Source: Chrysomallon squamiferum
Lineage: Eukaryota > Animalia > Mollusca
Length of the DNA stretch: 64,000 nucleotides
Reading direction: 5' to 3'
Assembly: GCA_012295275.1 (NCBI GenBank)
Contig: CM022670.1
Location: 18,848,001-18,912,000 of the forward strand
The number at the start of each line of letters is the position of its first letter. The stretch's first letter is position 1. The notes under the pieces are model-generated. The model saw only the letters and a list, made by a program, of their open reading frames with translations, was not told the DNA's origin and ran no database searches. Made by a program: the position numbers and the translations under genes. This document shows positions 6,446 to 57,000 of this stretch, one piece after another.

Positions 6446-7280
6446 TATTTTATTTTTTAGTTATTTAAGAATACAGAAGATTCAAAAAAATCAACTGAGG
6501 TAAATGTTTTTCTTTTGCTTTCATTTTCATTTTAAAATTATGAAACAATTGGAATGTGATTCATATAAATTACATAATCCCAAACATATCAATATATGTG
6601 AGCATTAGTTTCGGAACATTAATTGCATTCACTTAATATTTATTATAAATATATAAAAATATGTGTATCTAAATTTCCCAGGTATGTTTGTGTCTGTGTG
6701 CATGTGTGCCTCTGAACGAAAAGTTGATGAAAAGACATTTATCAAAAAAATGTATATATAATAACACTTCTATTAATATTTAAAATATGTTGGGGGGTGT
6801 GGTATGTGTTGATTAAATAATTATTCCTTTGATTTTTTTTTTTTTATCGATTTATTTATTTATTTATTTTTTTTTTTCATTAAACAGCCGTTATGTGATG
6901 AACATTCTAGGACAGATGACAAAGACGAGAAACCAGCAATGAAAGACAGTGGACATAAAAGCAGCCTCTTATCTTCCAAAGAACAAAGAAGTAGTTTCAG
7001 CAGTGACAATAACATGAAAAGCACTTTAAATTTCTCATGTAATTCAGTTTTTAAATCAAAAATGACAGCATCTTCAGAAAAGACGTTTAATTGTGGAATA
7101 CATTCCTCTGGTAAGAGATTACGAGGACCTGGAGAGTTTGATATCTCAGACAGTAGCATGTCTGGAACATGCAGTGATCTGAACAGTGGTACATCTCATC
7201 ACTATGAGATGACTGTTGTAAATAAACTTGACACTAGCTGTGAAGCTTGTCCAAGTTCTCAGGAAACTTTGTTAGTTTAA
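289..7280 (+). CDS. Single-pass fibronectin type III receptor, gp130/Domeless (type I cytokine receptor)-like; 3' portion only, 5' end lies outside the window
   Basis: Frame-consistent GT-AG exons: 289-371 (VPKSGPIVHPWFYSLDCRHYPVLALYWK), 967-1180 (EIPLRQRGSKNLKNYNIFIG...AETSAGAS), 1432-1586 (VPAKPYSV...LKVTW...IRVHWC), 1909-~2080 (...SSGLTW; donor uncertain), 3552-3642 (TM segment TVIIICVLVTFFICVMIICFL), 3899-3956 (FNSKKEPREKIEYPSHVYK), 39-nt exon(s) at 5876-5914 and/or 6461-6499, and terminal exon 6888-7280 (Ser-rich tail). The FN3 motifs resemble gp130/Domeless membrane-proximal repeats. The family call is from recalled motifs, not a search. Confidence 0.7.
5792..6662 (+). repeat. Tandem triplication of a ~290-bp unit containing a micro-exon
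   Basis: Unit starting tatatttgaactgaagtatg recurs at about 5792, 6079 and 6372. Each copy carries (TA)n, an acceptor, the exon ttatttaagaatacagaagattc...gag and the donor gtaaat. Confidence 0.95.
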
Positions 7281-8930: not shown

Positions 8931-11900
8931 TCATTTCATCCTCTTTCCCATCCAGAATCTAGGTTTGTCCTTGAAACTTTTAGTAATGTCATGAGCTGAA
9001 CGACGTATTTTTTTACGTTCAAAATGATGTTTTTCAGACTCCTCTTCTCTCTTTTTCTCCCAGTGACTCTGAAATAAATTTTATTTTCTATTTATATTCT
9101 GTATAGCTGTGTTCTAAATATTTAGTTTTAAATGTAGTTTTTAAAATTCTTTTTAAATTCCTAGCAATTAAAAATAATAATACTAATAAATACTTTTCCT
9201 TTAACAACTGAATGTTTAACAAGACTTTTTTTTTTTTGAGACCAAACACATGACTGATGAAAATACAAATTTCAGTTTTATCATTCTATAAAAGTTAATA
9301 TATTATTTAATTTTTAAAAAAACACTGACCTTTTTCAGAGTAAATGTCATTTCCTTATTTCCAAGAGATGCCATGTCTGTTCTGATTTCAGAATCATCAT
9401 TTCTTTCTTCAAGTCTCTCAGCAAGTGTTTTTCTGATTAAATTCAAATCAAATAACTATATTCATTCCATCTGACTTTTAAACTAGTGATATTTGGCAGC
9501 AACAGATGATAAATCAGACATGTAATTATTAATGTTCAAATGGAATGATGTTTTAGAATAGAAAAAGTTATTCATTAAAAACAGGTCTTCAAATTACCTA
9601 AATGAATTTTACATTCTTAAAATACTCACTGTTTCTAACACTAACAGTTACTAATAATAAAGCATAACAATAAAATTATATTATCATGAAGAAATGTGCA
9701 GCAGATATATATATTTTTCTAAATTTTTAAATGAAGAATATTTTTTATATAGTGAAAATGTAAAATATTCTTTAAATAAAAATACAGCAGTTTTGATTCA
9801 TATTTTTTTTTTTTTTTAATGTATAAAATTATACGATAAAATGGTAAACGCCAGGTAGGTAAGTATATTTTACTATCATACTTCCATATCATTAGCACAT
9901 GTCAAACCAATGTAATGTAAAAAAAAAATATGATCAATCACTTAAGTGACATTTAGTGGCATCTGAGATAACGACTTTATTTTTCAAATGTGAATGAAAT
10001 ATAATATAACATATTCTGAACAGTGAATATATATGGTTGAATAAATATATGTACAAATATGTAAGCATTTTGTGTCTTTGAATTTCACTTTAAAAACTCT
10101 CGGCACTTTTGTTCCAACCTAGTACATTATAAAAGCAAATTTCTCACTTGAGTTCTTTCTGCTTCTTTTTGTCCTGTAATGACTTGAACTCCTCTCCTTC
10201 TTTGATTTCATAGAACTTTGTCTTCATCATGGCTGCCTCCTGTCTTTCTGCCCATTGTTTCTGTTTGTGTTCTCTTGACACCAAGCGATGTTGTTTCTTT
10301 ACCTCATCAGTCCACACATGCTCATCATCAGAACTACTGCTTTCTTCATCACTTGGTCTACCTTCAACTTCATCCTAGAAGCAAAGAATAGGAATGTTTA
10401 TTTCTAAAAGAAATACTAGTCACTGGGCTGTAATCATATTGATACTGAGTTGTTGTTATGCCTTTATGAAAGATCTACATTTTTATATGTTTTGTTTTCT
10501 TTGTTAAAACCATTCATTCTGAAGTATATTTCACTAAGCTGTAGCATTAATTAATAATAACAATAACAATTAGGAAATAAATAACAATAAAATTTATAAC
10601 TAATAATTTTAAAAAAGCCCTTTTAATTTAATTATCCTAAATTTTGAAATATGATTTCAATCTATGGATTGTTATGTTAGTGTTTAAAGGCCTGCACAGA
10701 ATAACATGTGGCAGTCTATGTGTTAATATTCCAGAATTTTACCAAAAATTAGTATTCCCCTATTTCCATATATATCCACTCTTATTCAAACTAAAAAAGT
10801 TTCTCACCTCAATTTCATCAAACTGTTGTTCAACTACTGCTTGTTTCTTCTTTTTACTCTTGTCTAATTTTGATACAACTGGATTCAGTAGACGGTATTC
10901 ATCACTGGTTGTATCAATTTGGAAATCAGGGTTTGAAAACAGAGCAGAGAATCTGTTGTCTTTCATTATGCTTGACGTCAGTTTCTAAACAAATGTAAAA
11001 AATAATTATTATCTTCCTTCAAACTGAATCTCTAGATCCTGTCTTATTACTGGTAAGTAAACCCTAAAAAGCTTTGTTGTTTTATATACTGAGCATTTAA
11101 ATCTGTCAACATTACAGAGCAGTAAAGTCAGAGATAAAGTATAACCACTTTTACATCAAAAATACATCAAACCTGATACATAAATCTACCAGATTCTTTT
11201 CTTTTATTGTTTTATTTTGTAAATCATCTTTCTTGAAATAAAAAATACAGTATATTTAGTAGAATAAAATACTTTCTAAAATACAAAGTACAAAGCTATT
11301 AGAGGTCAAATTGAAAATAAGATAGAATCTTATATTACCTTCTTTTTCTTATTAGATCCTTCCTCATTCTCTGTCAGTTTCTCTGCCAAATCACGATTAA
11401 CCTTAGGGAGTTTCTACAATAAATACATTAAATTAGTTATTTATTTAACTTTTTATCAATAATAAAGGGTATTATAATAACTTGAATAAGTGTTTAAGAT
11501 CACATGCAGTATTCATTTGAAAAGGAAGAAGCAAGTAATTGAAAATTTAATTTCACCAGCGTTTTCACTTTACCTATTTACTGGATCAAATTGAAATGCA
11601 TGAAAAATCTTCACTTAAGGTGTGTTTGTCATGGAGGAAATAAAAAAAAGTTTTTCACCAGTTTCATCCTACATAGGTTCTTCAAGATCATTTGAGATTG
11701 CAGTCATTTTAATTGACATTTTTACAAGATTTATCTGCATCAAGACATTTTAATAAAATGTACTAACTTTCAACTGAACACGGTTTGTACGTTCATCCTC
11801 AATCTTCTCTCTGATTTTGCTCTTACGATAATTCTGATAAGCAAATGGATCAGATATTGCCTTTGCCTGCAAAAGAATAAAAACATATAATATTTTTAAG

Positions 11901-14900
11901 TCAGAATAATGAGACATAATTTTATAAAGTAGTCAATGACATAGGTGTACTTCATTATGAAAATTAGTTAAAAATATTAAATTTTCAGATAACTCAAACT
12001 AGTTACATATTTAAAACATTAATATAAAATTGTTTAAAAAAAATATATTAACACTAAATGCATTATAAACATGATTCACATTCTTAAAACACGAAAATAT
12101 ATATGTACATGTCCATGTGTTGTGTTACATGGTAGATGTGGTATGGTGTGTGTGTCTCTGTGTGTGTCCAAATGCAAGTATGCCTATGTTTAGGTATAAA
12201 TTAATGAGTTCATACAGATATATGTTTTATAATTTGATATATTTTACCTTATGATATAGTCTAATGTCCATGAAAAATCCATGCATGTAAGCTCGAAGAA
12301 GATTGGAGCCAATCAGATGTGACAGTCCCAAAGCTTCCAACTCGGTGCGAGTTACAAACTTGTAGTCATCATAGACTGAAATTGTTTTAGTATAAAATAA
12401 AATAAAAATAAAAAGGACAATGTACTTCATGGGAAGTGATGATTACACTCGGTTATTGATACTTGGGTCTTGACAGCCAAATGATAAATAACACTGTCTG
12501 CCTTCAGAGTGTGACAAATGGGTGCCATATGTTTGAGTCTTGACAACAGCATCTGACAAGGGTTTTTTTCAGTATTAAAATAAAAGCTAAAAGAATGTTT
12601 ATGTACAAAAATTATAGTATTCTCTATCAGTCTGAGAAATAAAAATGTGATAAAATGAGTGAAGTTTTTAAATATATTTTTAATTGTTTTTTTGTTTTTA
12701 TTTATTTATTATTATTGGGGGTTTTTTAATATTAAATGGCAAAATCCTTTTTGAAACTTACATTTTAACTTGAAATCCAAAAAGAAAAATATCTTATTTA
12801 AAAAATAACAGATGAAACAAAAAACAATAATTTATGGATATAATGCTATATCCCAAACAACTCTTACCTGTTAGTGTACTGCTTTCTTCTAACTCCTCTG
12901 TTAAATTATCCAAGAAAGAACACCAACGTGGAGCTGTTCCCAAACTCTTTAAGAAGAAAATGTAGAATTATTTTTAAATAATATACTGTATTTAAATACT
13001 AAAATATTAATGAAAAATTGTATATCAGTGGAGATAAAATGTTACTATCTTTATATCTAATAAAGATAAAATTAACCATTATAATATAATAATAAATTAA
13101 AGTGGAAAAATACACTAAGACATTTATTATTAAAAACATTCGTAAACTCAAATTTGAGTAAAAAACGACGTAATATATATATAACTTTGTTGATAAATTT
13201 CAGTTAATAAACATGTAATTAAGAACTGACTTACAGGAATGTAGTATGTCATTATTTTTGGAGCTTCGTTAGCCATAAACATGAGTCCTGAACCAGGTAC
13301 CTGACACAAATCATTGAGATCTATACCTGGCTCTATTGCAGTGAATGCTTTTCCCTGAAAAAAAAAAAAAAAAAATAATAAATAATAATAATATAATACT
13401 AACAATAATACTAATATAAATAAAAAAATAAAAATAATTATAATAAAAGAAGGAAAAGAAACTGTAGTAATAACAAGAATAACAATATTGATAACATCAA
13501 AGAAAAAATAATACTAATATTATTACTGTAATAATACAAAAAATATGTAATAATATTTCTAAAATGCCATCATTAATTTTGTTTTTACTATTATTTAACA
13601 CTTTTTCTTTGATAATTATTAGAAGAAGATAAGACAAGAGAAAAAGGAATTGTTTCTAAAAATTTTATCTTTTATATCCAGTGCTGTCTAAGAATAAAAT
13701 AAAACAAAAATAAAATTATACTACATCACATTATCCAAATTTCAGTTACATTTTATTAATGGTCACTTTCCCCATAGACTGTTAATGAAAAAAAACGTCA
13801 ATTTACTTATTTCTTTTTTCTTTTCATTTTTAATTTCTTTTCTTCCATCTTAGCATGCACTGAATTACTATCATTTTTAATTTTAATTTTGAAATTAACA
13901 TCTGAATATTTACCTGAAATTTAACACATTTGTATATTAAGTGAATTTTGTTGTTTGTAAGAAAACACACATAATAACAGTCCTTGACCAATTAACTATG
14001 GAGTGCTAGTTAGATCTAAGGCACCCTGAATGGATCCAAAGATCCACAACAGTCCAAAAGTTCATTAAAAGAAACTTAATCCAAGCCTTCCAATTTTAGT
14101 TTTCCAAACTGTTAAAAAACCACTACCCTTAAGGAACATGCCAATAATAGCTAAATTAATAAATTACAGTTTTTCTCTCCCACAGTTTGAGTATTTTACA
14201 GTCCATGGACAAGACCAGGTCCAGCTGGTTGTGGAACTCAATGTCTTTGATGGGCAGCTCATACTGATGGTCTTTTATTAACAGAGGTTTGTTTGATCTC
14301 AAGTCATACATTAAAATCTGAAACAAAGAATTAAAATTTAAGAACCTGCTGAGAATTAAATTAAACTTTTGATTATTTATGTACAAGCAGCATAGAATGA
14401 TTTTTTGTGCACTTTCCCTAGTTTTCACTTTTTAATCAATAAAATAGCATACCTGTTTGGAAATATGTTACTTACATTCAGAGAAAATAAAAATATGAAT
14501 TAGGAAAGACAAAAGGTAAGATACTCGTGGGAATACAATAACAGACACCCAAGCAATAAACTCATTTTTTCTTGCTGTTGTAAATAATCAGAGTAAATTT
14601 AATTTTATAAAATCTTAGATAAATATTGGGTAAATATACTTTGAGAGAGAAAATCCCTCATAAATAATCAAGAGCAGAGTAAAGAAATAAATAGGAATAA
14701 AACTGCTGATACTTACATGACCTGTATTTGTGCCTACAGCAATTGTAAGAGCATCTCTGTATTTCAGTGCTGTAACAGATGGCATCACTGGTAATCTGAA
14801 ACATTTAAATATTTTTATCAAATATACTAATTTGTCAAAAATATAATAATTGTTTATCTGGTATATTTTAGTATAATGATGATATGAGAGATAATTTCTT

Positions 14901-17900
14901 TGACAAAACTATATTGTTAGTAAGAAAAGACCCTTTTTATGCATCATTCCTTACACAAGAACTGTAACTGAGGTATACCTTTTTATATTTTTTCTAATTA
15001 AAATCAATATTAGAAAATAACTCCCATTTAATAAGTAAGACAAAAACATTTTGACATTTCCAAACATACTCACTGTAAATCTTCTACCAAACTTCCCAAA
15101 GCTGTATCCATCATCCCAGCTCTAGTTCTTGATCTTGGGTCCCAGCATTCTATGGTTCCCTGCAAAGATTTTTTTTTGTTTTTATTCTTTATTATCAGAG
15201 AAACTAACATTATGGAATCTTGCACTTGCGATGGCATCAAACAAACAAATGAAGAAAGAAGATAATAATATATTTAAGAAAATAAAGTTTGAAGTTTAGG
15301 GATAATTACTATTGCAGTCCTACTAATCTGTACAGAATGATTTCTCCAAAGAACAGAAAATTGTTATTTTATATATATATATAAACACACACAAAAACAT
15401 GCATGTTAGATCATTTACCTAAAATTATTCATATATAATTATAATGTTATTAAATAAGTCACCTCCTTGGTTCCACAAGCCAGTAGATCGTGCACTGGAT
15501 TGAACTCACAGCAGTTGATTTCTCTGTAAGAAACCACAAATTAATTTATTAGTGAAACAGAGGCGACATTAGAAAAGCAACAATTGTAAAGTTAATCAAT
15601 AACACGTATCAATTTTCATGTATAATATAAGTCAGAAAATGTAAGTACATTATTAAATATAATAAGCAATGACTGGCATAAAGGATATCATGAATCTACA
15701 CTCCCTTATTTAAACTAAACTACTGTAAAAATGCATCTTGGTCATATAAACTATTTAAAAAAAAAAAAAAAAAAAATAAAAAAAGGAAGAAAAGTTTCAA
15801 CAATCCCAAATGCAATGCTAAAAATAAACATGATCTGAAATTTGTAATCAATAATTAAATAATTTTAATAATTCCTAAAATAAATATATAACTTTAACAA
15901 TATAAGTAATAACATAAGTAATTTTTAATAAAAACAGTAATGTAATAATATAAATAATATAAAAAAAAGTAAATTTATAATAATAAAACCAATACCTAAA
16001 ATAAAAAATAATTTAACAATATAAAAACTTCTTAGCACAAAAATCTGATAATATAAATATTTCATAACATTAACAACAATTCAAGTGATAATTATTTTAA
16101 TTCAATTTACCTGAATGGAAATACTCACGTTGCATTTGTTTCCAAAGGCGACAAAAATCTGCCATGTTCCAGATTCAGTCGAAATATTTCATGTCTGCAA
16201 TGTATCAGTCAATACACTGTCATTACTATTATTACTTCAAATAAATCTGAGTTATTTTTTAAACAACTGCACACATAAGAAATAACTTATACTTCTGAAT
16301 ATATTCCTATAATGTGATTTACCATTAAGTTCTGTTTTAATTGTATTAGTTTCTATATCTGTCTTTACTGGTAGTGAAACCCCATCTATCAAGTCCTTGC
16401 AATTACATAAAATTTTGAAATACTAACTAAAATAGTTATCACCTGGTTTTTTATTTTAACCTTTTTCAAACTTTCCCTTTTAAAATATATTTTACATTCT
16501 AAGATGTAAATTAAAGGAATTGGTAAGTTTAAAATTAAAGATAATTCAAATATATATATATATTTTTTTTATTACTTATAAAGACAAATATTTCTATCAT
16601 TAAATGTATTTTGATAATATCCAAAATGAATAACACTAAATAATTAAACAATCAAATATTTTTTAAGATATATGCAATGAAGAACATACCCAACACCAAC
16701 AAAATACATGTCACATGTTGCCGCATGGTAGGCCAAATCTCTGCCATATTTTGGAATCCTTGTTCTGTAATATCTACCAAACTGTGAATGGAATTCAACA
16801 AATCGTTCATCTTGTAAGAAAACAATCTGAAAAATCAAAAGAATGATGAATAACATTTTAAGTTAATAATTTCATAAGATAAAGATTTAAACAGACAAAT
16901 CCAGCAAAGTCAAGGTTTTTCAACTTAATAAGTAAACATATAATAAGCTTTAAGAAGCACATACAAGTCTAACAACATATAGCAATTCAAAAAAATATTA
17001 ATTAACTGATTAAGTTAAAACTTTTTAGTAAATGCTATTCTGTATAAGGAATATTATAATATTAGCACATGATTAAAACAATGTATATTTTTGCTATTCA
17101 AAGCATGTTTGAAATGTTACGCTTTTAAGCTATTCACTATCAAAACAACAAGAAAGAGCTGAATATGTTAACATGTAAATATATTCCACGTTTAAATAAT
17201 GCCAGATTTTCTGCTATGGTGAAATATCAGACAGGAAATTCTTACTACTGTGTACTAACTTATCGCATACTCGATTGTTAAATATATATGTATCTTACAA
17301 TAGGCAGAACTGATTATACTCATTTTTTTAAATATGCAGTAAACAGATGTAAGCAAATGTAAACAAGAAGATTGATTCCTGACCCCAGCTCTGAGTGAAT
17401 GCTCTGAGATTCTTACCTTTGAATAATCATCAGACAACAATCTGAATTTGACCACTTCCACATCAAGTCCTCTCTCAAACTTCAGAGCCATTTGATGTAC
17501 ATCATAACATCTGACTCTGGGTTTGTATGTACCTTAATAAAAAAAACAAAGTAATTTTTACTATATTTTTGCAGAGAAAGAAATTTTCTATTGAACACGG
17601 AAGCATGAACTTTTGTAAACAGTTCAATACTATGAATAACAATTCCCACATCTGTTTAATAACATCTCAGTATATGCATATTTTAAACAATTATTATATT
17701 TATAACTGTATTTACCTGTTGCTAAAATATATTGGCCATCATTTGACACCTGTATACATTTGCTTACAGCTGGCATTTCAAAATCCTGAATAAGTTCAAT
17801 TCTTCGTTGAATATCTGAAAATGCAATGTTAAACTCCTCAAATAACAAACTGAAGCAAGAAGAAATGGTCCATATTACTAAAAATGTATCTTATATTGTA

Positions 17901-18782
17901 TGTAATACATCAAAGAAAAACAATTTGCTTAATGTTTCAAGTCAAATTAACTTATAATAGTATATAGTTCAAACTTTGGGTTATATATATATGAAAATGT
18001 ATTTTTTATTGAATATCAAAAGAAACTGTTTATTAAATTTAAATATGGGTAATAATAAATAAATAAATGATACAGGCAAAGCACGTTTGCCTATTACTTT
18101 TTACTTGTTATCACTGTTTCAAAAATTAATACCAAACTAACAATAACAACAGCAGACCTAATCATATCTGGTGAAATCAAATTTGTTGTTTACTTGATAA
18201 ACACACAAATTTAATTTGTAATACATACCGACATTGCTCTTTTGCAGTTTTCTTCTTTTCTGTTCTGATAACCACTATAATACAATTAAAATAAATGTCA
18301 ACCATACACATAGAATATTTGATACAAATATTATTTTTCTATAGACTTTTGTGGTTTATGACAATATAGTATTTACAATATAGCACTGAGAAAGTATTCT
18401 GTATCAATAAATTATTTATCAATTATAATCTTGTGCAGGTTACATATTTCTGTTACTGATTGAAGTGATTCTAACTTCAATACAATAGGAGAATAGCCAG
18501 TTACTAATCAAACGTAAATCATTTCATACATTAAATTTAAATTAGTAAATAATAAAATATGATTATTTTTATTACTACTAATAATGATGACGATAATAAC
18601 AACAACGACGACAATTATAAGTTAATATAAGTAACTGTTATTGTAATAAAATATTTATTAAAACAGAACTACTTAGACTCGTTAGGGTAAAACTAAAACG
18701 GTACATAGTTACTTACGTCAGGAAGTGACTTTCCAGCACTCAGATTATATATCTTCACGTTATTTGGATTAGAAACCTGCAT
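8931..18782 (-). CDS. NOL10: Nucleolar protein 10 (ENP2 homolog, WD40 SSU-processome factor), 19 exons, ~683 aa
   Basis: Starts [32 protein letters not shown]. Internal motifs [48 protein letters not shown]...[25 protein letters not shown]. Exons: 18717-18782, 18229-18274, 17716-17814, 17417-17532, 16690-16826, 16129-16194, 15463-15523, 15074-15159, 14717-14795, 14168-14317, 13235-13354, 12868-12946, 12248-12375, 11768-11866, 11339-11413, 10808-10984, 10148-10374, 9330-9432, 8931-9068. Total 2052 nt, all phases consistent. Confidence 0.97.
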
Positions 18783-20499
18783 CGTCGTTTTATTTTATAT
18801 TTCTTTCTTTTTCCAGTTTTACAATAATATAAGTTAATAACAAAACACGTGTGTTCAAGTAACATCCATGTTGTGATGAAAAGGGAAGTTGAAGGAGAGT
18901 TATCTTTACTAATTTTCTCCTCTTCCGTGAAACATAAATGATAAAAGGTATCGCTTTTTCGTTAACGTTTTCAAGCAGTAGTGTACAGGCCCATCAGTTT
19001 ACAAGCAAATAATATTCCATGATGTAATAAAAATATGAATGTTAACACTATAAGTATTTTTACTTAGTAAAATGACCACAGAAGAACTTTTTAAAAATCT
19101 TTTGATAATCATTATCTATTTTGATCATAGATGGCCGCAAAAATGGCACACAGTGACACAGCTACTACTAGTGAGTTACCAATTTGAAATGTCCATCAAA
19201 TGATTTCACACACATAGGTTTAAATAAAAATCCAGTACATCAGTTTGATAGTCAATTCTACACATAATAAGTAAAACATCGACTTAATGATTTAATTGAT
19301 TTCTGTGAATCATGTGCTTTACTCTTCCTGTGGAAATTCTCCGTATTCTCTCTTACGTACGTCTCAGTAGATTGTACATACTAACATACTTTTTTACATA
19401 GCTAATAATATTTGGGGACGCATTGGCGCAGGAAGACCCAGTCCAAGTATTTGGAGAGCAAGTCTCCATTTTTGTCTAATATTAACATTAATAACAAGTT
19501 ATTGATAGGAAAAATGTTATAGAGAAGTTTAATCTGTATCGTTGTGAAGGTGTTAACACAAATTTCACATTTCGGACTTCTGTTTAGACATTATATTCGT
19601 CATTCATCAGTGAATCTGAAACATACGCACAAAATAATGTATTAGCCGAAATATTTAGTGAAGATTTAGTAAATGAACAGCACATGTACTGAAGAGCATA
19701 ATCTGGGAGAGGATGGCGCAAGATAGGAATATGTAAAAACAACATTCGGAGGCTTTGCATATGAGGATCGAAAAAGTTGAATTTCAGTCCGAAAAATTAC
19801 ATGCATGTATTTTTATGTCTAACGCCCTATACTGAACCACCACGCCATCCCTCTATTAAAATTCTGATCGAAATGTTGCGCCATTTGGCCGTACAATCCA
19901 AATGTGTGGTTTGATGCTGATTATGCGGCTGCAGCCAGATTTGAAGTGGAAAGTTCAAATACAATCTCAGAACAATATAACTCGTCACTGAGACGTTATA
20001 ATCAGCAACAACACTACCGAATCTGACACTCGACCCAAACCTGAAGAGCACTGTGCTCCACAAGGACCCGACAGAACCACCACTAATGTCCTCTTACTTC
20101 TTTGAAACTAGTACCAACATAGTTGAATGATCAATGCTTGTACAGAGCCGAAAAAAGCCAGACACCACAACTTCAAAATGCTGCCAGAGATGAGGATGGA
20201 CATTCAGTTGTCTTCCGAGTTGACACAGATATGCTGCGATCAGGAGCTGGGGGTTTCAATATACATACACTTCCCCTACATCATTTATGTTTAAAAGGTT
20301 TAATAAGCTATGCTAATCGTATTACATCAAGGTTTGTTTACCAGACATGTTAAATAGATCATAATTGAATTTTTAGTTAGTGTCATATCCTGTATGTCCA
20401 AAATCATTTGATGGAAATTCCAGTTTGGAAGCTATGCAAAGGTTTTGAGTTTTGTTAGTTGTCGTTTAGTTTTTGGTAATTTTTTTTATTGTATTTCTG

Positions 20500-20949: not shown

Positions 20950-20987
<38 letters not shown>

Positions 20988-21052
20988 TTATTTTTTTTTT
21001 TTTTTTTTTTTTTGCATCATTCAGTTAGCTGTATGGTAAATAAAGCGTTCTG

Positions 21053-21250
21053 TGTCTTCAAAAGAGAAGTTGTGCTGAATACTGTAAACTAACTCTATTT
21101 ATTCTTCACTCGTCCAGGATTTCGTACTTCAGGTGTCTAATCATATAATTATTTTTGGCACTCTCGGATGTTTGATACTGATGTTATCATTTCTGTTTGA
21201 TAAAAAAGTGAAATATTATATCTGCAGAAAATTATGAACACACACACACA
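21053..21250 (-). pseudogene. Near-identical orphan copy of the promoter/exon 1 of the cationic peptide-EF-hand gene
   Basis: Matches 27252-~27465 almost base for base (tgtcttcaaaagagaagttgtgctgaat...ccaggatttcgtacttcaggtgtctaatc...gatgttatcatttctg). It is truncated before the exon 1 donor and has no downstream coding exons. Confidence 0.85.
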
Positions 21251-21880: not shown

Positions 21881-21943
21881 ATCAGGAAAAATAATTTTTG
21901 TTAAGCTTCCGTGGATAACTTTAATAACGACCAAGAAGCAGTT

Positions 21944-22458
21944 AAAGGTTGACATCCAGTGAATGACTTCGAACATTTCGATATTTTTAATATTCAGATT
22001 TAGCGTTAAGATATAGAAATGAAGATAATGAAAACTCGTTATACAGAATTTTAATCTTTATTGTTGATGTTTGTTTTAACACAGATTTGGCAAACTTCTT
22101 TTCTGTTAAGATAACCTCTGTGAGTGAATCAACTTGGCATTATCATACTTGAGTACTTTACAACTTAAATTTTGACAATTCAGTTAATGCATTTGTGGAG
22201 TGAAGGTGAGAAAAGTTTCTCTATAGCTTAACTGTAGCCATGAATACCAGTTAGACATATATTGAATATAAACTATGTAAACTTCAAATGAATATCCATA
22301 CAACTTTTATTATTATATTATTATTTTGAAATATTCTTACTAATGACTGTTCAGTTCATTCAGAGCTTGTTGAAATTCTTCACAAGTAACTACTTCATCT
22401 GATACAAAAATAAATTAATAATAAAACTAAAACTTGCACTAGCTCAACGAAATGTAAA
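21944..22458 (-). pseudogene. Diverged 3' half (exon 4 plus 3'UTR) of a paralog of the cationic peptide-EF-hand gene
   Basis: 21944-22110 matches 25119-25290 (3'UTR with AATAAA). 22324-22458 matches 25614-25746 and encodes DEVVTCEEFQQALNELNSH* versus DDVVTLEEFQQALDELNSH*. No exon 2 or 3 found upstream. Confidence 0.85.
22130..22255 (+). mobile_element. hAT transposase C-terminal remnant (copy 1)
   Basis: acttggcattatc...ttttgacaattcagttaatgc...gtgaaggtgagaaaagtt reads as a degraded LA...LNFDNSVNAF..VKVRKV, like the end of the hAT dimerisation domain. A related copy lies at 29178-29292. Confidence 0.55.

Positions 22459-22677: not shown

Positions 22678-22725
<48 letters not shown>
22678..22725. 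repeat. (TG)n microsatellite
   Basis: Perfect dinucleotide run. Others in the window include (ATT)n ~1710-1760, ~20500-20560 and ~43965-44025, (CA)n 25844-25914, (TAGG)n ~29954-30000 and (AAT)n ~30235-30278. Confidence 0.95.
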
Positions 22726-22727
<2 letters not shown>

Positions 22728-22781
22728 GACATTCAACAGGTTGCCATGTTCAGATATAATATTTCATTTTTTTAATGGAAT

Positions 22782-23017
22782 AGAAATGATAACATCAGTA
22801 CCAGTATCCAAGAGCGCCTAAATAATTTTGTTGGTGACAAATTGTGTAGACACCTAAGGTACGAAATCCTGGTCGAATGAAGAATAAACAGAGTTAGTTC
22901 ACAGCATTCAGCACAATTTCTCTTTGGAAGTAGAAGAAATCGTCAAATATAAGTTTATTTTAATTTATTTGTAATCTCTGAATCAACTGAACAGTCATTA
23001 GTAGTTACATTTCAAAA
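22782..23017 (+). pseudogene. Inverted, internally deleted paralog relic (promoter/exon 1 fused to the end of exon 4)
   Basis: 22782-~22955 is a diverged reverse complement of 27220-27392 (agaaatgataacatcagta...gtacgaaatcctgg...gaagaataaacagagttagtt...cattcagcacaa), with the donor gtaagt changed to ataagt. It is followed at ~22976-23017 by ctctgaatcaactgaacagtcattagt (LNQLNSH*). Confidence 0.8.
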
Positions 23018-23157
23018 ACATAATAATAATAAAACTTGTACAAATATTCATTACAAATTAAAAAATATATATTTATAAAAATATGTATGTTTTTATATCT
23101 ATGGTAGCTTATGAGCAAAAGTGCTACGTTCTATAACATATTATAGTCTGTATTATT

Positions 23158-23200
<43 letters not shown>

Positions 23201-25309
23201 TTGTTGTTATTATTATTATTATTGCCTCCTATGAAACACAAAACTTTCCCGGATTTGTCACGAGTAACTTTATATAAATAGATTAATAGCAAAATGTCGC
23301 ATTTCCTGTAAGTGTTTTCAATAGAGATGATAACAATGGATATAGATATCTGATGATACATTTTTTTTATATTAATTACAAACTATTCGCATATCCAGTG
23401 TGTCAGATCGTGTACGAAACGATTACATGGTTATCAAAATAACTTTTTATTTATTTACTTCTTTATTTGTCTCAAATTATGACACAATTCGAGGTTGTTG
23501 AATTTATTTTTTATAAGTCCATATACTTTTTCAGATTTCATTTACTTGCGTATATAATTTTTTTTTTTTAATGTTTGTTTATTTATATCTGAAATGGATA
23601 GAATGAGGTAACTGTCCTTTACTTATTAATAATAAACATTTTGATTGTTTAATCCAGTTCACATATGCATACAAATGTGCATACGTTCATGCATACATAC
23701 GTAGATATATATATATATATATGCAAACATAAATAAGTTAACACACACAAACATACATATATTCATACACGGGTATGTATGTATCTGTGTATGTTTAATA
23801 CGCTATTGTTGGCTTTAATTATTTTGTGAAAGTTAATTCTTTATTTTAAGATCTATTTTTGTTAATTAGAAGAAGGCATAAATATAGAATTAAAAAAAAA
23901 CATGAACATTTAAAAAAATCAAAGTAAACTAATATTCAGAGCAGAAAGCGGAATTATCTAATGAAAGAATTGTTTATCAGTTCTAAAAAAACCACTGTGA
24001 ATTTCAAATTCTTCAGAAACATCCAGAAATAACAGGAATAAAAATAAAAGTTTAAAATGCGCTGAACTATGCAAAATTATCTTAAAACGCTTTTGAGAAA
24101 ATTTGCGAAATTTCATCGAGCGATTGTTCAAAACGTTATAGAATGAATATGTGAAATTTTAAAAGTAAATACATGAAACATTAAATATAAATACAAAGAC
24201 GTCAAGGAACCAGTAAAAAATAAATTTCAACATTTCTGCATGTAATCAGTTTTCAATGGTTTCTTAAAATAAATCCAAAGAGGAGTACAGGCATCCCGTT
24301 TCGAGAACATTCATAGCACAAAAACGGTAAAAATAATAATAATAATAATAACAACAACAACAATAATAAATATGTTTGGATCAAACTAAGCAATAACAAC
24401 AACAATAATCAATATGTTTCGATCAAACACATTTAGGAAACATAATCCTTGTTAAACTGCCGTTGGTAACGTTGATACAGGTACCTGACCATTTTATCAA
24501 TTTTCCAGAAAACCGCCTTTAGAGGTGTAGTAATTTGTATGTGTTAAATACAGTTTCTTTCCTTTCAAAATGCAACGCCTTCTTGGCTAAACCATTTGTT
24601 TAAAAACGTATACAAATAAATTCTGTTAATTATAGAAAGGAAACATTTAAATTAGGGAATAATTTAAAATATTTATGTACTTTCTAAAACGTATATATTC
24701 TTTACGTACATTTGCCATGTAATTACATATACTTGATAACTTGTCATGCCATAATGTTATGAACATTTTTTCAAAACGAACACGGCTAAAGCCTTAACAT
24801 TAAAACTACAGTATTCCTTAACTTTGAATAATTAATTATATATTACAAAGAAAAAAGAAATAGTTGATAAAGAAAAAGCGTGACAACCTGAAATTATCAT
24901 GTCAGTTATTGGTAGATGTAACCATAGGAATAATTATATTTAAATAACTAAATAAGTAAATAAATCATTAGTTTGTTAATACATCTGACTTCTCTTTAGT
25001 TATTCGACATAATTTTTTTAAGGACAATACGATGAGGAGGTATTAATGAAAATATATAAATACAAAATAGAAGACGAAGGCGACATCTCAGCACAAACTA
25101 ATAACCAAGTACCAAGAGAAAGGTTGACCTTCAGTGACTGAGTTCGAATCTTTCGATATTTTTAATATTTAATTTTAAAGTTCAGACCTAGAAATGAAGT
25201 AAGTTAAAACTCGTTATATAGGATTTTAATCTTTATTGTTGATGTTTGCATTAACACAAATTTGACATTTCAGACTTCTGTTTTGTTAAGTTGGTCATCC
25301 TTCGGTCAA

Positions 25310-25859
25310 TCTGAAATGTAGAAAAAACAAATAATGTCCTGACTTTAAAACAAACATTTTATAGATAGATTACCTTTTATAGAACATAGCACTCTTGCTC
25401 TTACGCACACACACACGCACACGCACGTTGCTAAACTTTTTAGTTTTACATTTATTATTTGTTTGTTTATAACATTTCTGTTTCTATACTTTCTAAGCAT
25501 CAACACATATATCACACTCGATTATTTTTGTAAGTTTTTATTGCTACTACTACTGCTGCTGCTGCTGCTCCTACTATTATTATTATTATTATTATTGTTA
25601 TTGTTATTATTAGTTTGAAATGTACTTACTAATGACTGTTCAGCTCATCCAGAGCTTGCTGAAATTCTTCAAGTGTAACTACGTCATCCGCTACAAAATA
25701 AATTAATAATAAAGATATAACTTGCACTAACTCAACGAAATGTAAATCATGAAGAAATTATAAATTAAATATTATTTTATTCTTCAACAAACAACTAGAT
25801 TATCTCCCCTTCGAACTCGTGCATTTACTTTCTCTCTCTCTGTCACACACACACACACA

Positions 25860-25921
<62 letters not shown>

Positions 25922-26645
25922 CTTTTCCTCATTATATTCTTTAAATAATCAGTTTACACAGAGATATCCGTTCATATTTTTTTTTCATTTGTTACTGCTG
26001 TTTTTATCAATAACATTTGCTCTCCCAATCTTTGTGGAAAAATCAGTGTTAAATAAACTCGATGAAAATATTTACTGTCACGATCAACGAAATCCATAAG
26101 TTCTTCTGCTTCTCGTGAACTTAGAATCGACTCAATTTCTTCTTTGTCGATCACACCATCATTGTTCGTGTCAAAGTCATTAACATCTACGTATGTAAAA
26201 ATATAAATTTATTAAGAAAAAATAACTAAATAATTTTATTCATAGATTGGCGAGATCAAGAATGAGAAAGCAAATGTGAAAGAACAGTATTATTAGCAGT
26301 GTATTCAGACCATATTCATGTATAAGACAAATTAAAAAAGTAAAATATCTAATGAGGCATACTTTATAATCAGAACAACAACACAAATGATAATATAAGG
26401 TAGTTTGAAGTAAGTGAAAAAGTTATTATTTTGAAATGAAGTCCATTTCAATTCCCGCTCCATGTATCTAGACCAATCTAATATTTAATAATTTTATAAA
26501 CTTGTTTATTACCTCTTTTCCCGTGAGTTAAAGCGTAGTATTTAACGTAAGATTTCGCTCTGCGCCAGGCACGACGTATTCTCCAAGCGTCACCGTTGGT
26601 AACAGCTATAGCGACAAGAACTACTAGGACAAGGACAAATTTCAT
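25310..26645 (-). CDS. 101-aa secreted prepropeptide: signal peptide, cationic amidated peptide, acidic two-EF-hand propeptide (candidate antimicrobial/toxin precursor)
   Basis: Coding exons 26513-26645 (ATG directly after the acceptor AG; MKFVLVLVVLVAIAVTNGDAWRIRRAWRRAKSYVKYYALTHGKR), 26076-26186 (DVNDFDTNNDGVIDKEEIESILSSREAEELMDFVDRD), 25630-25690 (TDDVVTLEEFQQALDELNSH), with the stop completed at 25310. All introns GT-AG with matching phases (1,1,2). Non-coding exon 1 ends at donor 27224; AATAAA at 25232-25237. Confidence 0.88.
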
Positions 26646-27223
26646 CTGTAACATAACATTGTTAAAATACTGGTATTTAAGTTTAAACGTCCAAATATAA
26701 AAATAAAAAAAAATAGAGAAATTAATAATAATAATAATAAATAATAAATAATAAATAATAAATAATAATAATAATAATAATGTATACGCAGTAATACTCA
26801 AATACTAACCTTTTCTCTTTTTTCGCATTTGTTCTGTAATACGTTTCGCATTCGTTTCAAAACATTTTAACCTTTTCTGTAATACTTTTCTCATTAATTC
26901 AGAAACATTGTTCGCATTCATTTGATAATATTACTCTCTTTCGTTCTGTATATAGCTTTTGCCTTACTTTGAAAAAGTTATTCCTTTTGTTCATGGCTAC
27001 ATTTCAATCTAATCGTCAAAACGAACAAATTATTTCTAGTATTAGATAAAATACAGAAACTTTCATTCGTGGCAGATGAAACTCTACTTGACAATTCAAG
27101 AAAAACAGAAATAAATAAACAAATAATAATAATAATAACAACAACAAGAATAACAACATCAATGATAAATTATAAAATAAATAATACAAAAGACGCATTA
27201 TAAATAAGTTAAAATAAACTTAC

Positions 27224-27330
27224 GTTTGGAGGTATCTTCTTCTTGCTCTATTGTCTTCAAAAGAGAAGTTGTGCTGAATGCTGTAAACTAACTCTATTTA
27301 TTCTTCACTCGTCCAGGATTTCGTACTTCA
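27224..27330 (-). promoter_or_regulatory. Putative core promoter and non-coding exon 1 of the peptide gene
   Basis: On the minus strand: GTACGAAATCCTGG (27313-27326), TATA-like AATAAATA (27295-27302), Inr-like CATTCAGCAC (27271-27280), then a consensus donor c|gtaagt at 27224/27223. The block is conserved in two other copies in the window. Confidence 0.6.
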
Positions 27331-27934
27331 GGTGTCTAATCATATAATTATTTTTGGCACTCTCGGATGTTGATACTGATGTTATCATTTCTGTTTTATA
27401 AAAAGGTGAAATATACCTGACCACCTAATTTTAGCTGATATCCTGCAAAATATTATGAACGCACACACTCGCACGCACACGCACACACACACACAGGGGA
27501 TGTGTACGTATGTTATACCTGGACATATACTGAACCTCTAGACTCTGATTGTTCGAAAGGAGTTTTGCCACAACTATGTGATGCCTGGGTCGATATCGTG
27601 CATTTTGTTATATTAAAGACAGCGAAAGATCAAACCGATGCGAAAAACGTGACCAAACTCATTTAAATGTAAAAAAATTCTTTGTTTATAGGTGCCTAGG
27701 TAGGATATTATAAATTTGTAGGTTAGGACACAGCCTTTGAATATGAGGATCGAAAAAGGTGAATTACCCACCGCGTCTGGAAAATTACATATGGGTATTT
27801 TTATGTCTAGTGCTCTACATCAAACCAGCAGTTGAATAAAGGTTCTGGCCGATTCAGTATAGAGCACACTGAACACTGATCATTATAATGTTTTCCGTAA
27901 TAAGTTTCACCCATTTCGGTTTTTAATTTCAAAG

Positions 27935-40500: not shown

Positions 40501-43500
40501 AATACTTCATCCGAAAAAAGAAAAATATGACAGAATTTTTAAGAGAGAAGGTAAATTGTTGGCCTTTTTATTTTGGGGAAGTGGGCAAGTTGAGCTCAAT
40601 TGATTTATTCCAGAGCGAAAGAATAAAAATGTAAATTTTAACAATTTAGTGAAATGTACATGAAGTAAAATGAGTGACCTGAAATTACACTTTTACTGCA
40701 GTTTTTGTTATTATCCTAGTTTGCTATTATGTGACATCAGTAGTTTTTAATTAGTTATTATATTTTAGTTAGTATCTTTTTTCTTTAAAAATATAATATC
40801 ATATTTATAATAGTGGAACAAACCTGATAAAAGGTGATTTATTTTATTAGATCACAGGTATTTTAGTGTTTTGTATGTAAGATTTGTTTGTAAATTAATG
40901 CTAATTTTATCTGATATATTTTAAGCGTTACTAATTGGTGATGCCTACAGATTCTGTAATAACTAGATTTTAATTTTTTCAGCTTCAAGCACTGAAAGGA
41001 TCCAAAATACATTTAGAAGAACATATCAGCAATAACAAGGTAAATATTTTTGCTATTTGTTTTAGGGATTTTTATTATTTCTTTGTATTTTCTTCAAATA
41101 ACTTAACACAACTGGAAGTAATGTTAACCTAAAATGAAACTTGATTATTCTGAAAACCAAGACTAATCTAATACATATTATTTCAATTTGAAGAAGTTCT
41201 TAAGTAAAGTGGTACCACATCTAACTTTGAATGTTCAATGAAATATTTTCACATTTTGTTATTTCTGTGTTAAGTCATGCAGTTAGTTCTTATTGAAAAC
41301 TGGTGGTAATTTTGTTTTAAAATTAATCTTTCAGAGTCAAATGAGTGCAAGTGATCGGAAAAACTATGAAAAACGACTCAAGGATTACAAATACGAAATA
41401 AAGTAAAAACCACTTTTTAAATACTTTTTTAAATACTAAAGATATTTCAACATTCTCTTTCCTTTTAAACTTTAAAATGGACATACAATCAAACCATGTA
41501 TTTCACATCCAACAAAATATTGTATTTGTTAAAAATGTAAATTACTTTTTAAATATTACTGTAAATCTTTTAACAAACATATTATAAGATTTACAGTAAT
41601 ATCTTGCTTAACGATATCCCGCTTTAACGATATTTTTTTACAAATTATGTAAATAGAAATTTAATAGTTAATTGCTCGAAATAAATGGTACAAATGGGTC
41701 CAATGCATGTGTTTAAGTCAGTTTTTCATTTGTATTTTGTTTGTTTTTTGTTCAGTCACATGCTAAAGCTTCCCTCATCTGTGATCAGTTTACATGCAGA
41801 CATTATACATGCATGTGGTGTTCAGATTCTCTCTTATCTTCTGCTTCCATTTAGACTTAACACCTTTGTCATTTATCCTTCCAGTATGTCAAAACAAATA
41901 CAGAGCAGTGAATGCTGATGATAAAAAGAAACAGACGCGAATAACTTCAGAAACAAAAAACAATATCTTAAATGAACACAAAACTGGTAAATCCATTAAA
42001 GACTTAGCTGCAAAATTTTGTTTGTGTCAGTCAACTGTACTGACGATTTTAAAGGATAAAGAAAAATATTTGAATGAGATTAAAAGAACTCACTCCTTGC
42101 ATTCTATGAGGGTACAAAACAAAGAAGGAAAAACTTTTGTCAGTATGTTAAATGATCAAATGCAATTATTAAATATGCCTGTGACTCAAACTGTCATATG
42201 TGCTAAAGCAGTACATATAAATTAGTCTCCCGTTTAACAATGCCTCACTTAATGATTGGAAATTTGGAAACAATTATATCGTTAAACCAAGGTATTATTG
42301 TATTTAGTCTACAGAAAAACAGAACTGAGCATTTTAGCTTCTGTTTGAATTTATTTTTATAAATAAAGAAGAATATGTAAGTTTTATTTTCTATACCTAC
42401 TCTGTTTACAGAATTAAAAAAATCATTAATAATACAACAACATTACAAAGAAAAGGAATAAAGTGTTTAGTCTAAATGTTTACTTTATCTTGTTCGTTTC
42501 ATGTAACTGCTGTACAAACAAAAGATAAAAAGCAATACAAGTATTAATTCAGTTTCAACAGGGAGAGTACATATTTGTAATTGGCATGTTTTTTCCATGG
42601 GTCATACAGAGAAGTGGGTTTTTTTCTTCAGTATTTACAAAAAATTCATAGTTTTGTACTATATTAATAAAGTTACCAAAAATAAAATAGTTCTTGATAG
42701 CCTGTGTTTTCCTATCAGCTGTTTTCTTAATCATAATGCTTGGAGTGGGATTGAGGGAAAGAGAAAGAAAATGAAACAGAGGTAGCAACAACAGTGGACA
42801 AAGCGTGAGAGCTGCTAAAGCTGTTGTTTTGTATTTGCAGACAAACACGACTGATGCGTGATAGAGAAGAAGAAATAGACAGAACTCTGCTGAAAAACAA
42901 TATCCACACTTGGAAAGAACTAAAAGCTCAGAGAGAAGAGCAGGGTTATACCAACACTTCATTAAAACTGAACATCACAAGGTAATAACAAAGAAATTAA
43001 ACTGATTTTCTAAATATTTAAAATAGCCACAGTATACAAATTAATATTATTCTCTATGACTCAGAAAAAAAAAAATTGATTTTATGTTCATTATATTTTT
43101 TTTTTTCTCCAAAATTAGAACTTTAAGGGAATAAATTTGATCATAAGGATTTTCTGTACATGGAAGATAATGACACTTTAATGAATGAAGCCTGAAATAA
43201 TGTGTTTTACTGAAAATAATGCCGAAATGACATATCAACATGCTTTTAAAAAACATTTATATAAATATGAATTAAAAATGTATAAGATAAGTATCTTTAC
43301 AAAGTTGTGTTATTAAATGGTGATTTATTTTATTTTATTATTTTGTTTTTTTTCTGCAGTGAAGAATCAAACAAAGTTGAAGATCAAGTTTGGTGGAAGA
43401 ATGAAATGGAAGAGGAGCTGTCTGAACTGAGGGAGGAATTTGAAGAAGAATACAAACGCAGATTAGCTATTTACAGTGAACAAATGCAGGCATTGGAAAA

Positions 43501-54084: not shown

Positions 54085-57000
54085 TTTATTGTTATTAAAT
54101 TAATGGCCCTTCCTTTCAGGCTTTAGTCCAGCCTTTTGTGGAAGCCATATTCCAAGAAACCATTGTACAAACCAGTGTTGTTGATGGACCAAATCCCAGC
54201 TTTAATGAGGAATTACGTATTGCTCTTGAGTAAATTTGAACTTAATTGTTTTTATATTTAAAGAACGTATATTTAATAATAGGTAACAGATAAAATGAAA
54301 ATTGTCAGATATTGTTTTAGAAAATCTTAAAGGCTTGATGACTAAGATATTTGGTACAGTTACACCTACAATAAACTGAAACCATTTACATGGTCAGTGG
54401 GTGCATACTAATGTTATGTTCAGCATTAAAAGCAACATTTCTTATCATTTTAGTTTTGATTATTCTTTCCGAAAATGCAAAGATATATATACTGCTAAAG
54501 TGTTTTTTGAAACATGGTATTTTTTTTGTATCTGTTAATTTTTAAATTAAGTTCAGTTTTATTAAAATGTTGTGTTTTTTTTTGTTTTTTTTTAAATGCT
54601 TTACATATTTGTAAATATTAATTAAAATTACAATTATTTATTTATACTCAATTTTCAGTAATTTAATGAAATGTTTATTATTTAATGATTCTTTTTTTTT
54701 TTTTAAGAGCACCAGCTAATGACTACAGTGCCAGGTCATTACAAAAAATTACTGACATCCTTTACCTTAATCTGTTTGATGAGGTTGTACATGATCTAGA
54801 GGTTAGTTTTACTTAAACATATGATTATAGAGCTGATTAATGTTGTAAACACAAACAATACAGAGTTTGGTGATGTACAATTTCACGATATAGAGGTTAA
54901 TGTTGTAAAAATACATGATGTAGAGGTTAGTGTTGTAAAAATACATGATGTAGAGGTTAGAGTTGTAAAAATACATGATGTAGAGGTTAGTGTTGTAAAA
55001 ATATAAGATGTAGAGGTTAGTGTTGTAAAAATATAGGATGTAGAGGTTAGTGTTGTAAAAATGCACAATATAGAGGTTAGTGTTGAAAAATACATGATGA
55101 AGAACTTAGTATTGTAAAAATACATGATATAGAGCTTATTGTTGTAAAAATATATCATTTAGAGGTTAGTGTTGTAAAAAAATATATGATGTGGAGTATT
55201 GTACTGTAAAAATGCTTGACAGAGAGCTGTTGTAAAAATACATCAGATTTAATAACAGACTTTTTTTAATGTTAGAAAGTTTACAGTTACCAATATAGTT
55301 TTAATACATAGAATTCTTAAATTTTAAAAAAGAATTAAATGATTAAACATGCTATTAAACTGTATCATTATATTCCATCAAACAATATTTAAGGTTGAAA
55401 TATATAAATTAGTTACATAGATTAATAATCTTCTATTGATTTGCAGAGTGAAAGTCAAAGAAAAACAAAAATTCATCAGCGCATTGAAAGGAAATGGCTT
55501 GGTTCCTTGCAAATTCCATTTTCAACAATTTACCTCAATTCAAAGGTGTTTCTAGTTACATGAAATAGTGTAGCTTACCTTTGTTTTGTTTTTGTTTCTT
55601 TCAGTTTCAAATGTATTGTTGATGTTTAATTTTATTTATTTATTTTTTATTATTGTTTTGAAATTATGATTTACTTTTAATTATAAAAGCATAATTTAAA
55701 AATAGGACATTTAATTATTTTTGTCTCATTATTATATTATCAATCTTTCTTTTTTACTGTCACCTTCCAACTCTGTCTCTTCATCTGTTTCTTTCTTTCT
55801 CTAACTCTCACTCTCAAGAATTATTTTTTCTGTCATATGCATACACAAATAAGTCTGACATAAATGTACACAGAATCTATAGTTGTTACTGGTTAAAATG
55901 TCTTATTTAATAGAAATTTAATTTCAGATTGATGGCATCTTTCGGATAAGAAAACCTCCCATTCTGCTGGGCTATAGTTCCAAGGAGAATGCAAATGACA
56001 CATATCTACAAGTTTTTATTACTACCCAACCTCCACTGAAAATACCAGAACCTGTCAAATATAAGGTAAACAAATTATTATTTGTAATGTTAATGCACAG
56101 ATCATCTGTTAAAATATTAATTATTTAGCTGTATCTACCTTCCAGTGTTTAGTACCTACCTATATGCACAAGAATCTGTCAAACACAAGATCAACATACC
56201 ACAGATTGATTATCTATTAATATATTCAGAATATAGAGGTTTGTGCCTTCATATTTCTGTCACCATTCAACTATTTCTGAAAATATAGGAACCTGAGAAA
56301 TACATGTTAAACATGTCATGAGAGTATTCATTAATAGCTTCAGTATCTGTAGGTATAAACAAAGTATGTATCATTACCCACCCATCCACAAAGAAGACAA
56401 GGTAACTCATTAAACTGATAATTAAACTGCAGATTAAGCATCAGTAAATTCTGCATGAATGCCAATTTTCTGCAGTCATACAACTAAACAAAAATCAATA
56501 ACTGGAATTAGTATTTTCATGAATTTATCAAACCATATATAGATTTGTTTGCATAAATTTTTATTAAACATTAAATATCTAGATGAAGAAAAATGGTGCA
56601 AACGTTCTACTTAAGCGAAACACTTAATTTATGGTTATGTATTGTATTATGTATATGGTAAAGACAGTACAGATAATGAAAAAGCAAGGACTATTTGTTA
56701 CATATTTATTGTTGTTTTATAGGAAGCAAAGTAAATTATAATTTTGAGCATTTTATTGTTATTACTTTTGTTATATTCATCTAATTAATGTCCTGTTAAA
56801 CAGTTTTTACCGAAGTATATTTTATCCAAGCAACTATAAAAAAAAAAAAATATATAACTGATCTGCCAAGCTTACTGTTATGATCATTGTTATCATTATA
56901 CTTATTTTTGCTTGTATTTGCAGTTTCCTTCAGTTGACAAAGAGAAATTACTGGAGAGATGTGATAAATGGCAGACAGAGATAGAAAGTAAATTCCCAAA

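Follow-up and report, generated by a model that had tools for sequence, protein, structure and literature searches.

The minus strand of the window (the whole 64,000-nucleotide stretch of Chrysomallon squamiferum DNA that was analysed) carries an expressed, unannotated-looking precursor gene which recombines two known molluscan layouts, a myticalin-type peptide and a mytimycin-type tail. With a probability of about 0.6, we read its product as the predicted secreted precursor of an amidated, cationic, membrane-active antimicrobial peptide that would be masked by an acidic EF-hand tail.

Exon structure, transcripts and decayed copies

The region from 25.2 to 27.3 kb of the window contains a minus-strand gene of five exons, with introns that are all of the GT-AG type and 101 codons specifying a 101-aa precursor. 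Its features are the following:

27224..27246, minus strand: 3' end of exon 0, which contains 5'UTR only; donor GTAAG at 27223; joint 26645/27224 in run X2; its 5' boundary lies outside the mapped part
26645-26513 (133 nt), minus strand: exon 1, AG/GT-bounded, encoding 44 residues and the first base of codon 45
26586..26645, minus strand: codons 1-20 of exon 1, forming the predicted signal peptide (from the sequence, core and -3/-1 residues judged by eye)
26523..26585, minus strand: codons 21-41 of exon 1, the cationic peptide in its predicted mature form (from composition, pI, basic-site scan and single-sequence model)
26513..26522, minus strand: amidation/convertase signal G-K-R, followed by the opening base of codon 45 and a phase-1 donor; X2 and X5 contain the joint 26186/26513
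26186-26076 (111 nt), minus strand: exon 2 (phase 1/phase 1), with EF-hand loop 1, a 17-residue linker and the first three residues of loop 2
26172-26137, minus strand: EF-hand loop 1, residues 50-61, matching Pfam PF00036
25690-25630 (61 nt), minus strand: exon 3, with the remainder of loop 2, the exit helix and bases 1 and 2 of the stop codon
25232..25310, minus strand: exon 4, with the last base of the stop codon, the 3'UTR and AATAAA at 25237-25232; X6 record 13

The ATG of exon 1 sits directly behind the splice acceptor of the 5'UTR intron, both introns between coding exons 1-3 are in phase 1, and the fourth intron splits the stop codon, which is completed at 25310.

The gene is real, as the predicted splices are joined in RNA contigs from three studies. 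The contigs examined came from four of the nine public runs containing part of the window. The joint 25690/26076 was found in all four runs, 26186/26513 in two of them (X2 and X5) and 26645/27224 in one (X2), where its short side is 23 letters long; record 13 of X6 is made of the pieces 25244-25310 and 25630-25690, which end at 25310 and 25630. All the stretches skipped by the contigs have CT..AC ends. Unspliced pieces in X1 and X2 indicate that DNA or pre-mRNA was present in those libraries, and it is formally possible that the spliced contigs stem from a processed copy elsewhere. The contig depths, 2-8, are unfit for ranking expression. A reading made earlier from the letters of this DNA (hereafter the sequence-only reading) had assembled a 101-aa protein from three small exons and had named RNA junctions as a check: its protein length and its splices are borne out by the RNA joints, whereas the exons number five. 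A six-frame scan for a signal followed by a cationic stretch and G-[KR]-R matched only this locus in the window and gave no match in 20 locally shuffled windows, a result which, together with the RNA splice joints, rules out a chance reading frame.

A TATA-like/initiator-like pair at 27400/27379 was considered and rejected, being spaced closer than usual and lacking RNA support. An upstream reading frame of 12 codons (27343-27305, minus strand) lies in the putative 5'UTR exon.

Within 6 kb downstream, the gene is followed by three or more partial copies in decay. The window holds one intact copy, and no remnant retains exon 1 or exon 2:

22307..22458 (exon part 22341-22399), minus strand: decayed exon 3 copy with flanks; 88% at the nucleotide level, 16/19 amino acids identical
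21930..22110, minus strand: copy of the 3'UTR exon; 80% at the nucleotide level
21053..21216, minus strand: region of exon 0, copied recently, splice donor absent; 96-99% at the nucleotide level
22690..23032, plus strand: inverted remnant, an exon-0-like stretch then the end of exon 3, exons 1-2 missing (sequence comparison)
19516..19615, minus strand: further 3'UTR-like copy; 76% at the nucleotide level

In the exon 3 copy (22399-22341, minus strand), the original acceptor AG is changed, a frame-keeping AG lies three bases on and the donor is kept; this copy could serve the intact gene as a substitute for its last coding exon. The TATA-like motif at 27400 is altered in the 21.2-kb copy. About 40 bases behind the near-identical exon 0 copy, a long A tract on the minus strand (20950-21015) could mark a retro-inserted element. 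Contigs of the RNA libraries match briefly and then diverge at 27687-27813, 24520-24559 and 24932-24965, suggesting that dispersed repeats flank the gene.

The cationic peptide and its acidic tail

Judged by eye, residues 1-20 form a signal peptide with a hydrophobic core and small residues at -3/-1. Residues 21-41 include five Arg and two Lys, no Asp, Glu or Cys (pI 11.48), and end with Leu-Thr-His, after which comes G-K-R; the side-chain charge of this 21-mer is about +7 and that of the acidic tail about -17. On these points the sequence agrees with the sequence-only reading, which had described a 20-aa signal, a Cys-free 21-mer with five Arg and two Lys, and then GKR. That reading had also proposed that the 21-mer is an amphipathic helix and is released as such in amidated form, and both proposals stand in part. 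A single-sequence model places a helix at residues 20-42 (mean pLDDT 73.6), but the amphipathicity is borderline, the helical hydrophobic moment compared with shuffles giving p=0.13 for the whole 21-mer and p=0.055, 0.026 and 0.072 for the best 11-, 15- and 18-mer windows, respectively. Similarly, the G-K-R signal is present, but a furin-type R-I-R-R (R-X-R-R) at residues 22-25 and R-R at residues 28-29 make the exact 21-mer uncertain, a 16-mer or a 12-mer being possible. The predicted mature form may thus be the 21-mer or, if a furin-type cut occurs at residue 25, the 16-mer. When exon 1 was compared with Pfam at E up to 10, antimicrobial families included, no family was matched.

One RNA contig, record 10 of X2, differs from the window at 6 of the 133 positions of exon 1 and at none of the 172 positions of exons 2-3 (Fisher p=0.006); it should be noted that this variant is a single contig of depth 4.1, flagged as possibly erroneous. 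Four listed differences in exon 1 lead to three residue changes (N17S, I23A and S32P), and the R-X-R-R and R-R sites are retained. The X5 contig shows no difference from the window over 26513-26578.

The tail of 57 residues contains 20 Asp/Glu (19 in whole codons and one in a junction codon) against three Lys/Arg, which confirms the earlier count, and the first of its EF-hand loops, also recognised before, lies above the Pfam cut-off (25.9 bits against PF00036, cut-off 25.4) with the canonical 12-residue pattern (D, N, D, G, I, D and E at positions 1, 3, 5, 6, 8, 9 and 12). Loop 2, assigned by sequence pattern, spans an intron; it has ligands at positions 1, 3, 5, 9 and 12 and a fitting entering helix, with Asp at position 6 where Gly is usual. 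The profile scan and the fold model were run per exon, and loop 2, split over exons 2 and 3, lies outside both. Between the K-R site and loop 1 there are five residues, and between the two loops 17. A full entering helix needs more than five residues, and position 6 of loop 2 is Asp, which makes it uncertain whether the free tail binds calcium. Animal calmodulin genes presumably carry, at position 4 of loop II, an intron in phase 1, which is the place of the intron in loop 2 here; in that case the tail would be a shortened calmodulin-lobe cassette.

Relatives and known precursor layouts

Relatives were searched with single exons of 36-50 residues as queries, which is a weak test. With exon 1, none of 31 candidates among proteins of 78-2000 aa was retained at E up to 10, and the exon 2 region gave no candidate among proteins of 42-137 aa. 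Compared with 1.84 billion representatives, exon 2 had 388 matches with E no higher than 0.001, of which the 150 that were listed each match with at least two stretches at 33-58% identity and are generic multi-EF-hand proteins. Seventy-seven of these 150 pass a filter for a hydrophobic N-terminus, none of them with a cationic peptide and G-K-R in the 75 residues shown. Generic EF-hand proteins crowd this list and a true relative could rank lower. Unannotated oyster or gastropod proteins made of a signal, a Trp/Arg-rich stretch and an EF-hand pair may exist in databases. Among metagenome contigs (38 of 64 parts), 595 pattern matches yielded seven loci, each covering 19-20 residues around loop 1. 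In the Atlas, the best value for exon 1 was 0.77, which is not meaningful, and exon 2 found generic EF-hand clusters only; likewise, all 176 matches among solved structures were generic EF-hand. Searches of the open literature (bioRxiv supplements and subscription journals, in which many peptides of molluscs are published, being outside their scope) found no account of an EF-hand pro-piece joined to a linear amidated peptide, and neither did the available portions of PMC11359391, PMC12027567, PMC12466427, PMC9334734, PMC7889660 and PMC7653742.

In the mytimycin precursors of Mytilida, a dibasic site is followed by an anionic EF-hand extension (PMC8004829; PMC7653742), whose role is stated as unknown, and the mature peptide is Cys-rich with 10 invariant Cys (PMC8004829). 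Antifungal activity and expression in haemocytes further mark the mytimycins. The arrangement of signal, cationic peptide, dibasic site and anionic EF-hand extension is shared with the precursor described here. The sequence-only reading, which had noted only that the propieces of myticalins and piscidins are not described as EF-hands, missed this precedent, and the concept is less new than it had proposed (PMC8004829). Mytimycin variant A1 also has two loops, in which 6/12 and 8/12 positions match by eye, mostly at EF-hand consensus sites, with loop 1 preceded by 17 residues and the loops spaced by 23, compared with 5 and 17 here. The mytimycin peptide has 10 invariant Cys and, in the available descriptions, no Gly for amidation, whereas the present peptide has no Cys and ends with G-K-R; its lack of cysteines rules out membership of the mytimycins. 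The new part is only the pairing of an EF-hand pro-piece with a linear, Cys-free, amidated peptide, two elements which were not found together in our searches.

Myticalins comprise a signal, an Arg-rich cationic peptide with a pI above 11, Gly with a dibasic site and an anionic extension, the mature peptide having 23-42 aa with over 10% Arg and the extension 35-75 aa (PMC5577615). Pseudogene copies are reported for myticalins and modiocalins (PMC5577615, PMC12294457). Myticalins are further marked by antibacterial activity and expression in gills. Like the myticalins, the present peptide is linear and Cys-free, with a pI of 11.48, 5/21 Arg, G-K-R and an anionic tail of 57 aa. Myticalin genes have three exons, with a 5'UTR exon, an intron right before the ATG and a phase-1 intron after the dibasic site (PMC5577615, PMC12294457); the first two introns here are placed in the same way and two more follow, making five exons instead of three. 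The myticalin extension is encoded by one exon and is not described as a folded domain in the available text (PMC8004829 for the fold), whereas here it is an EF-hand pair. By eye, the present signal peptide is without the Cys residues and the C-terminal pattern of the myticalin consensus, and the peptide, which is not Pro-rich, has 21 aa compared with 23-42 aa. The signal-peptide mismatch and the two extra introns rule out membership of the myticalins; nevertheless, the precursor likely works like a myticalin though it stands outside that family.

Fish piscidins and pleurocidins and tunicate clavanins and styelins are made as a signal, an amphipathic cationic helix and an anionic C-terminal pro-piece. 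No EF-hand is known to occur in the pro-pieces of piscidins/pleurocidins or clavanins/styelins, and, as regards these helical antimicrobial peptides of fish and tunicates, exon 1 here is without a Pfam match. Precursors combining a peptide with EF-hands are also known from annelids and molluscs, in their genes for myoactive tetradecapeptides (PMC2762978), from the Helix gene behind pleurin (PMC8398477) and from nucleobindin/nesfatin (PMC9004410). The present precursor shares with the EF-hand neuropeptide precursors a signal, a peptide, a dibasic site and a C-terminal EF-hand region; no common peptide motif was seen with those available, and its peptide is far more cationic and in single copy. 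Pfam contains a myoactive tetradecapeptide family; membership of it was rejected, as exon 1 matched nothing in Pfam within the E limit of 10. Pleurin membership was rejected on the C-terminus, Leu-Thr-His and not PRXamide (PMC8398477).

Possible functions and genomic neighbourhood

Starting from the observed exon structure, splicing, composition and EF-hand loop 1, processing was predicted according to the rules used for myticalins (PMC5577615). Signal peptidase would cut after residue 20 and a convertase after K43-R44; a carboxypeptidase would then trim the end and the amidating enzyme would use G42, so that an amidated cationic peptide is released. The acidic tail (about -17) would neutralise the peptide (about +7) and mask it during biosynthesis; the tail may bind calcium and the released peptide would kill microbes. 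Because loop 1 of the free tail is not preceded by a complete entering helix, the peptide's C-terminal portion might complete EF-hand 1 in the precursor, or might dock on the tail, both of which are speculation. Basic amphiphilic helices dock on calmodulin.

Host defence is favoured by the splicing seen in RNA contigs, by the order of domains and the placing of the first two introns, which are those of the myticalins (PMC5577615), by the anionic EF-hand extension known from mytimycins (PMC8004829), and by the helix predicted for residues 20-42. The combination of a variable peptide and a constant pro-piece in the X2 variant suggests the same function, and the decayed downstream copies, by their resemblance to duplicating defence-peptide families (PMC5577615), would also count for it. 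Against it stand the borderline amphipathicity, the presence of only one intact copy and the lack of a Pfam match for exon 1; furthermore, the internal R-I-R-R and R-R could yield shorter, neuropeptide-sized pieces. The sequence-only reading had left the choice between host defence and venom: host defence is still the best reading and nothing points to venom.

The internal basic sites lead to a different view of the precursor, that of a neuropeptide or peptide-hormone precursor, in which these sites would free a short amidated receptor ligand from the 21-mer and the tail would help in sorting to granules or in storing calcium. This route had been named earlier only as a refutation; EF-hand neuropeptide precursors, namely those of the tetradecapeptides (PMC2762978), pleurin (PMC8398477) and nesfatin (PMC9004410), make it a rival, albeit one that we consider unlikely. 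While R-X-R-R at 22-25 and R-R at 28-29 are both kept in the X2 variant, as such a precursor would have it, the peptide is in single copy, has no PRXamide C-terminus and no Pfam match, and the variation of the peptide exon and the local duplication and decay differ from what conserved receptor ligands display. The EF-hand exons, which are invariant in the one variant contig, would also fit a precursor whose working product is the EF-hand pair itself, that is a small protein which binds calcium and is secreted into mucus or shell matrix, and in which the cationic segment would sort, anchor or form a complex. The EF-hand calcium-binding protein of the pearl oyster mantle is secreted. Such a protein is among the mantle-expressed transcripts of the pearl oyster (PMC3191542). 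However, the Gly before K-R makes sense only if the upstream peptide is amidated, and after cleavage loop 1 is preceded by no more than five residues, so that the free domain would be weakened; we hold this explanation to be unlikely as well, if anything more so.

A venom component or an anti-predator cytolytic gland peptide is improbable. Anatomy alone cannot tell cytolysins from antimicrobials, and spider venoms contain linear cationic peptides with acidic spacers (PMC7889660). By contrast, among the 24 matches to one exon of the neighbouring CC2D2A gene the best relatives are abalones and limpets (Haliotis, 77-79%; Lottia and Patella, 76%), cone snails and cephalopods being absent, and the Raphitoma venom paper, in its available portion, lists only an unrelated 214-aa EF-hand protein.

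Returning to the antimicrobial reading, we tentatively propose, as a possibility that we rate well below the reading itself, that the gene is the founder of a family, so far undescribed, of antimicrobial peptides of molluscs that are helical and amidated, and in which a calmodulin-lobe-like EF-hand pair acts as a calcium-dependent safety catch. The C-terminal half of the peptide would stand in for the entering helix that EF-hand 1 lacks, or would dock in its hydrophobic pocket; calcium of the secretory pathway would keep the peptide folded away until cleavage at G-K-R frees it, and the same EF-hand cassette would have been recruited independently behind the mytimycins and behind this unrelated peptide. 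Cys-free antimicrobial peptides are rare in molluscs. According to a 2025 paper, no amphipathic helical antimicrobial peptide has been described in bivalves (PMC12294457); in the portion available, helices are also predicted there for myticalin C, and helical peptides from gastropods and cephalopods are listed in a review, likewise available in part. The 21-residue peptide and the 57-residue tail would provide a minimal test system for calcium-dependent silencing by an EF-hand pro-piece, and a conserved tail would be a handle for hypervariable peptides that similarity searches miss.

The gene is placed between NOL10-like exons and the CC2D2A gene. The NOL10-like multi-exon gene (10144-18782, minus strand) has Pfam matches to NUC153 at 10763-10984 and to the NOL10 N-terminal domain at 17258-17533, and by eye its start lies near 18780. 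The CC2D2A gene (34200-60700, plus strand) has 23 segments matching a Haliotis protein; over all its exons, identity is 53-60% with named molluscs compared with 52% for Branchiostoma, a freshwater mussel being level with Haliotis. This gene thus points to a mollusc, of no particular class, as the probable source. Its introns contain a transposase-like helix-turn-helix remnant (41785-42225, plus strand), for which CENP-B_N and HTH_SB are below the cut-off, and a minisatellite-like tandem array (54809-55158) with repeating translations. Finally, a Ser-rich frame of 155 aa (6813-7280, plus strand), without a Pfam match, resembles an exon of another gene.
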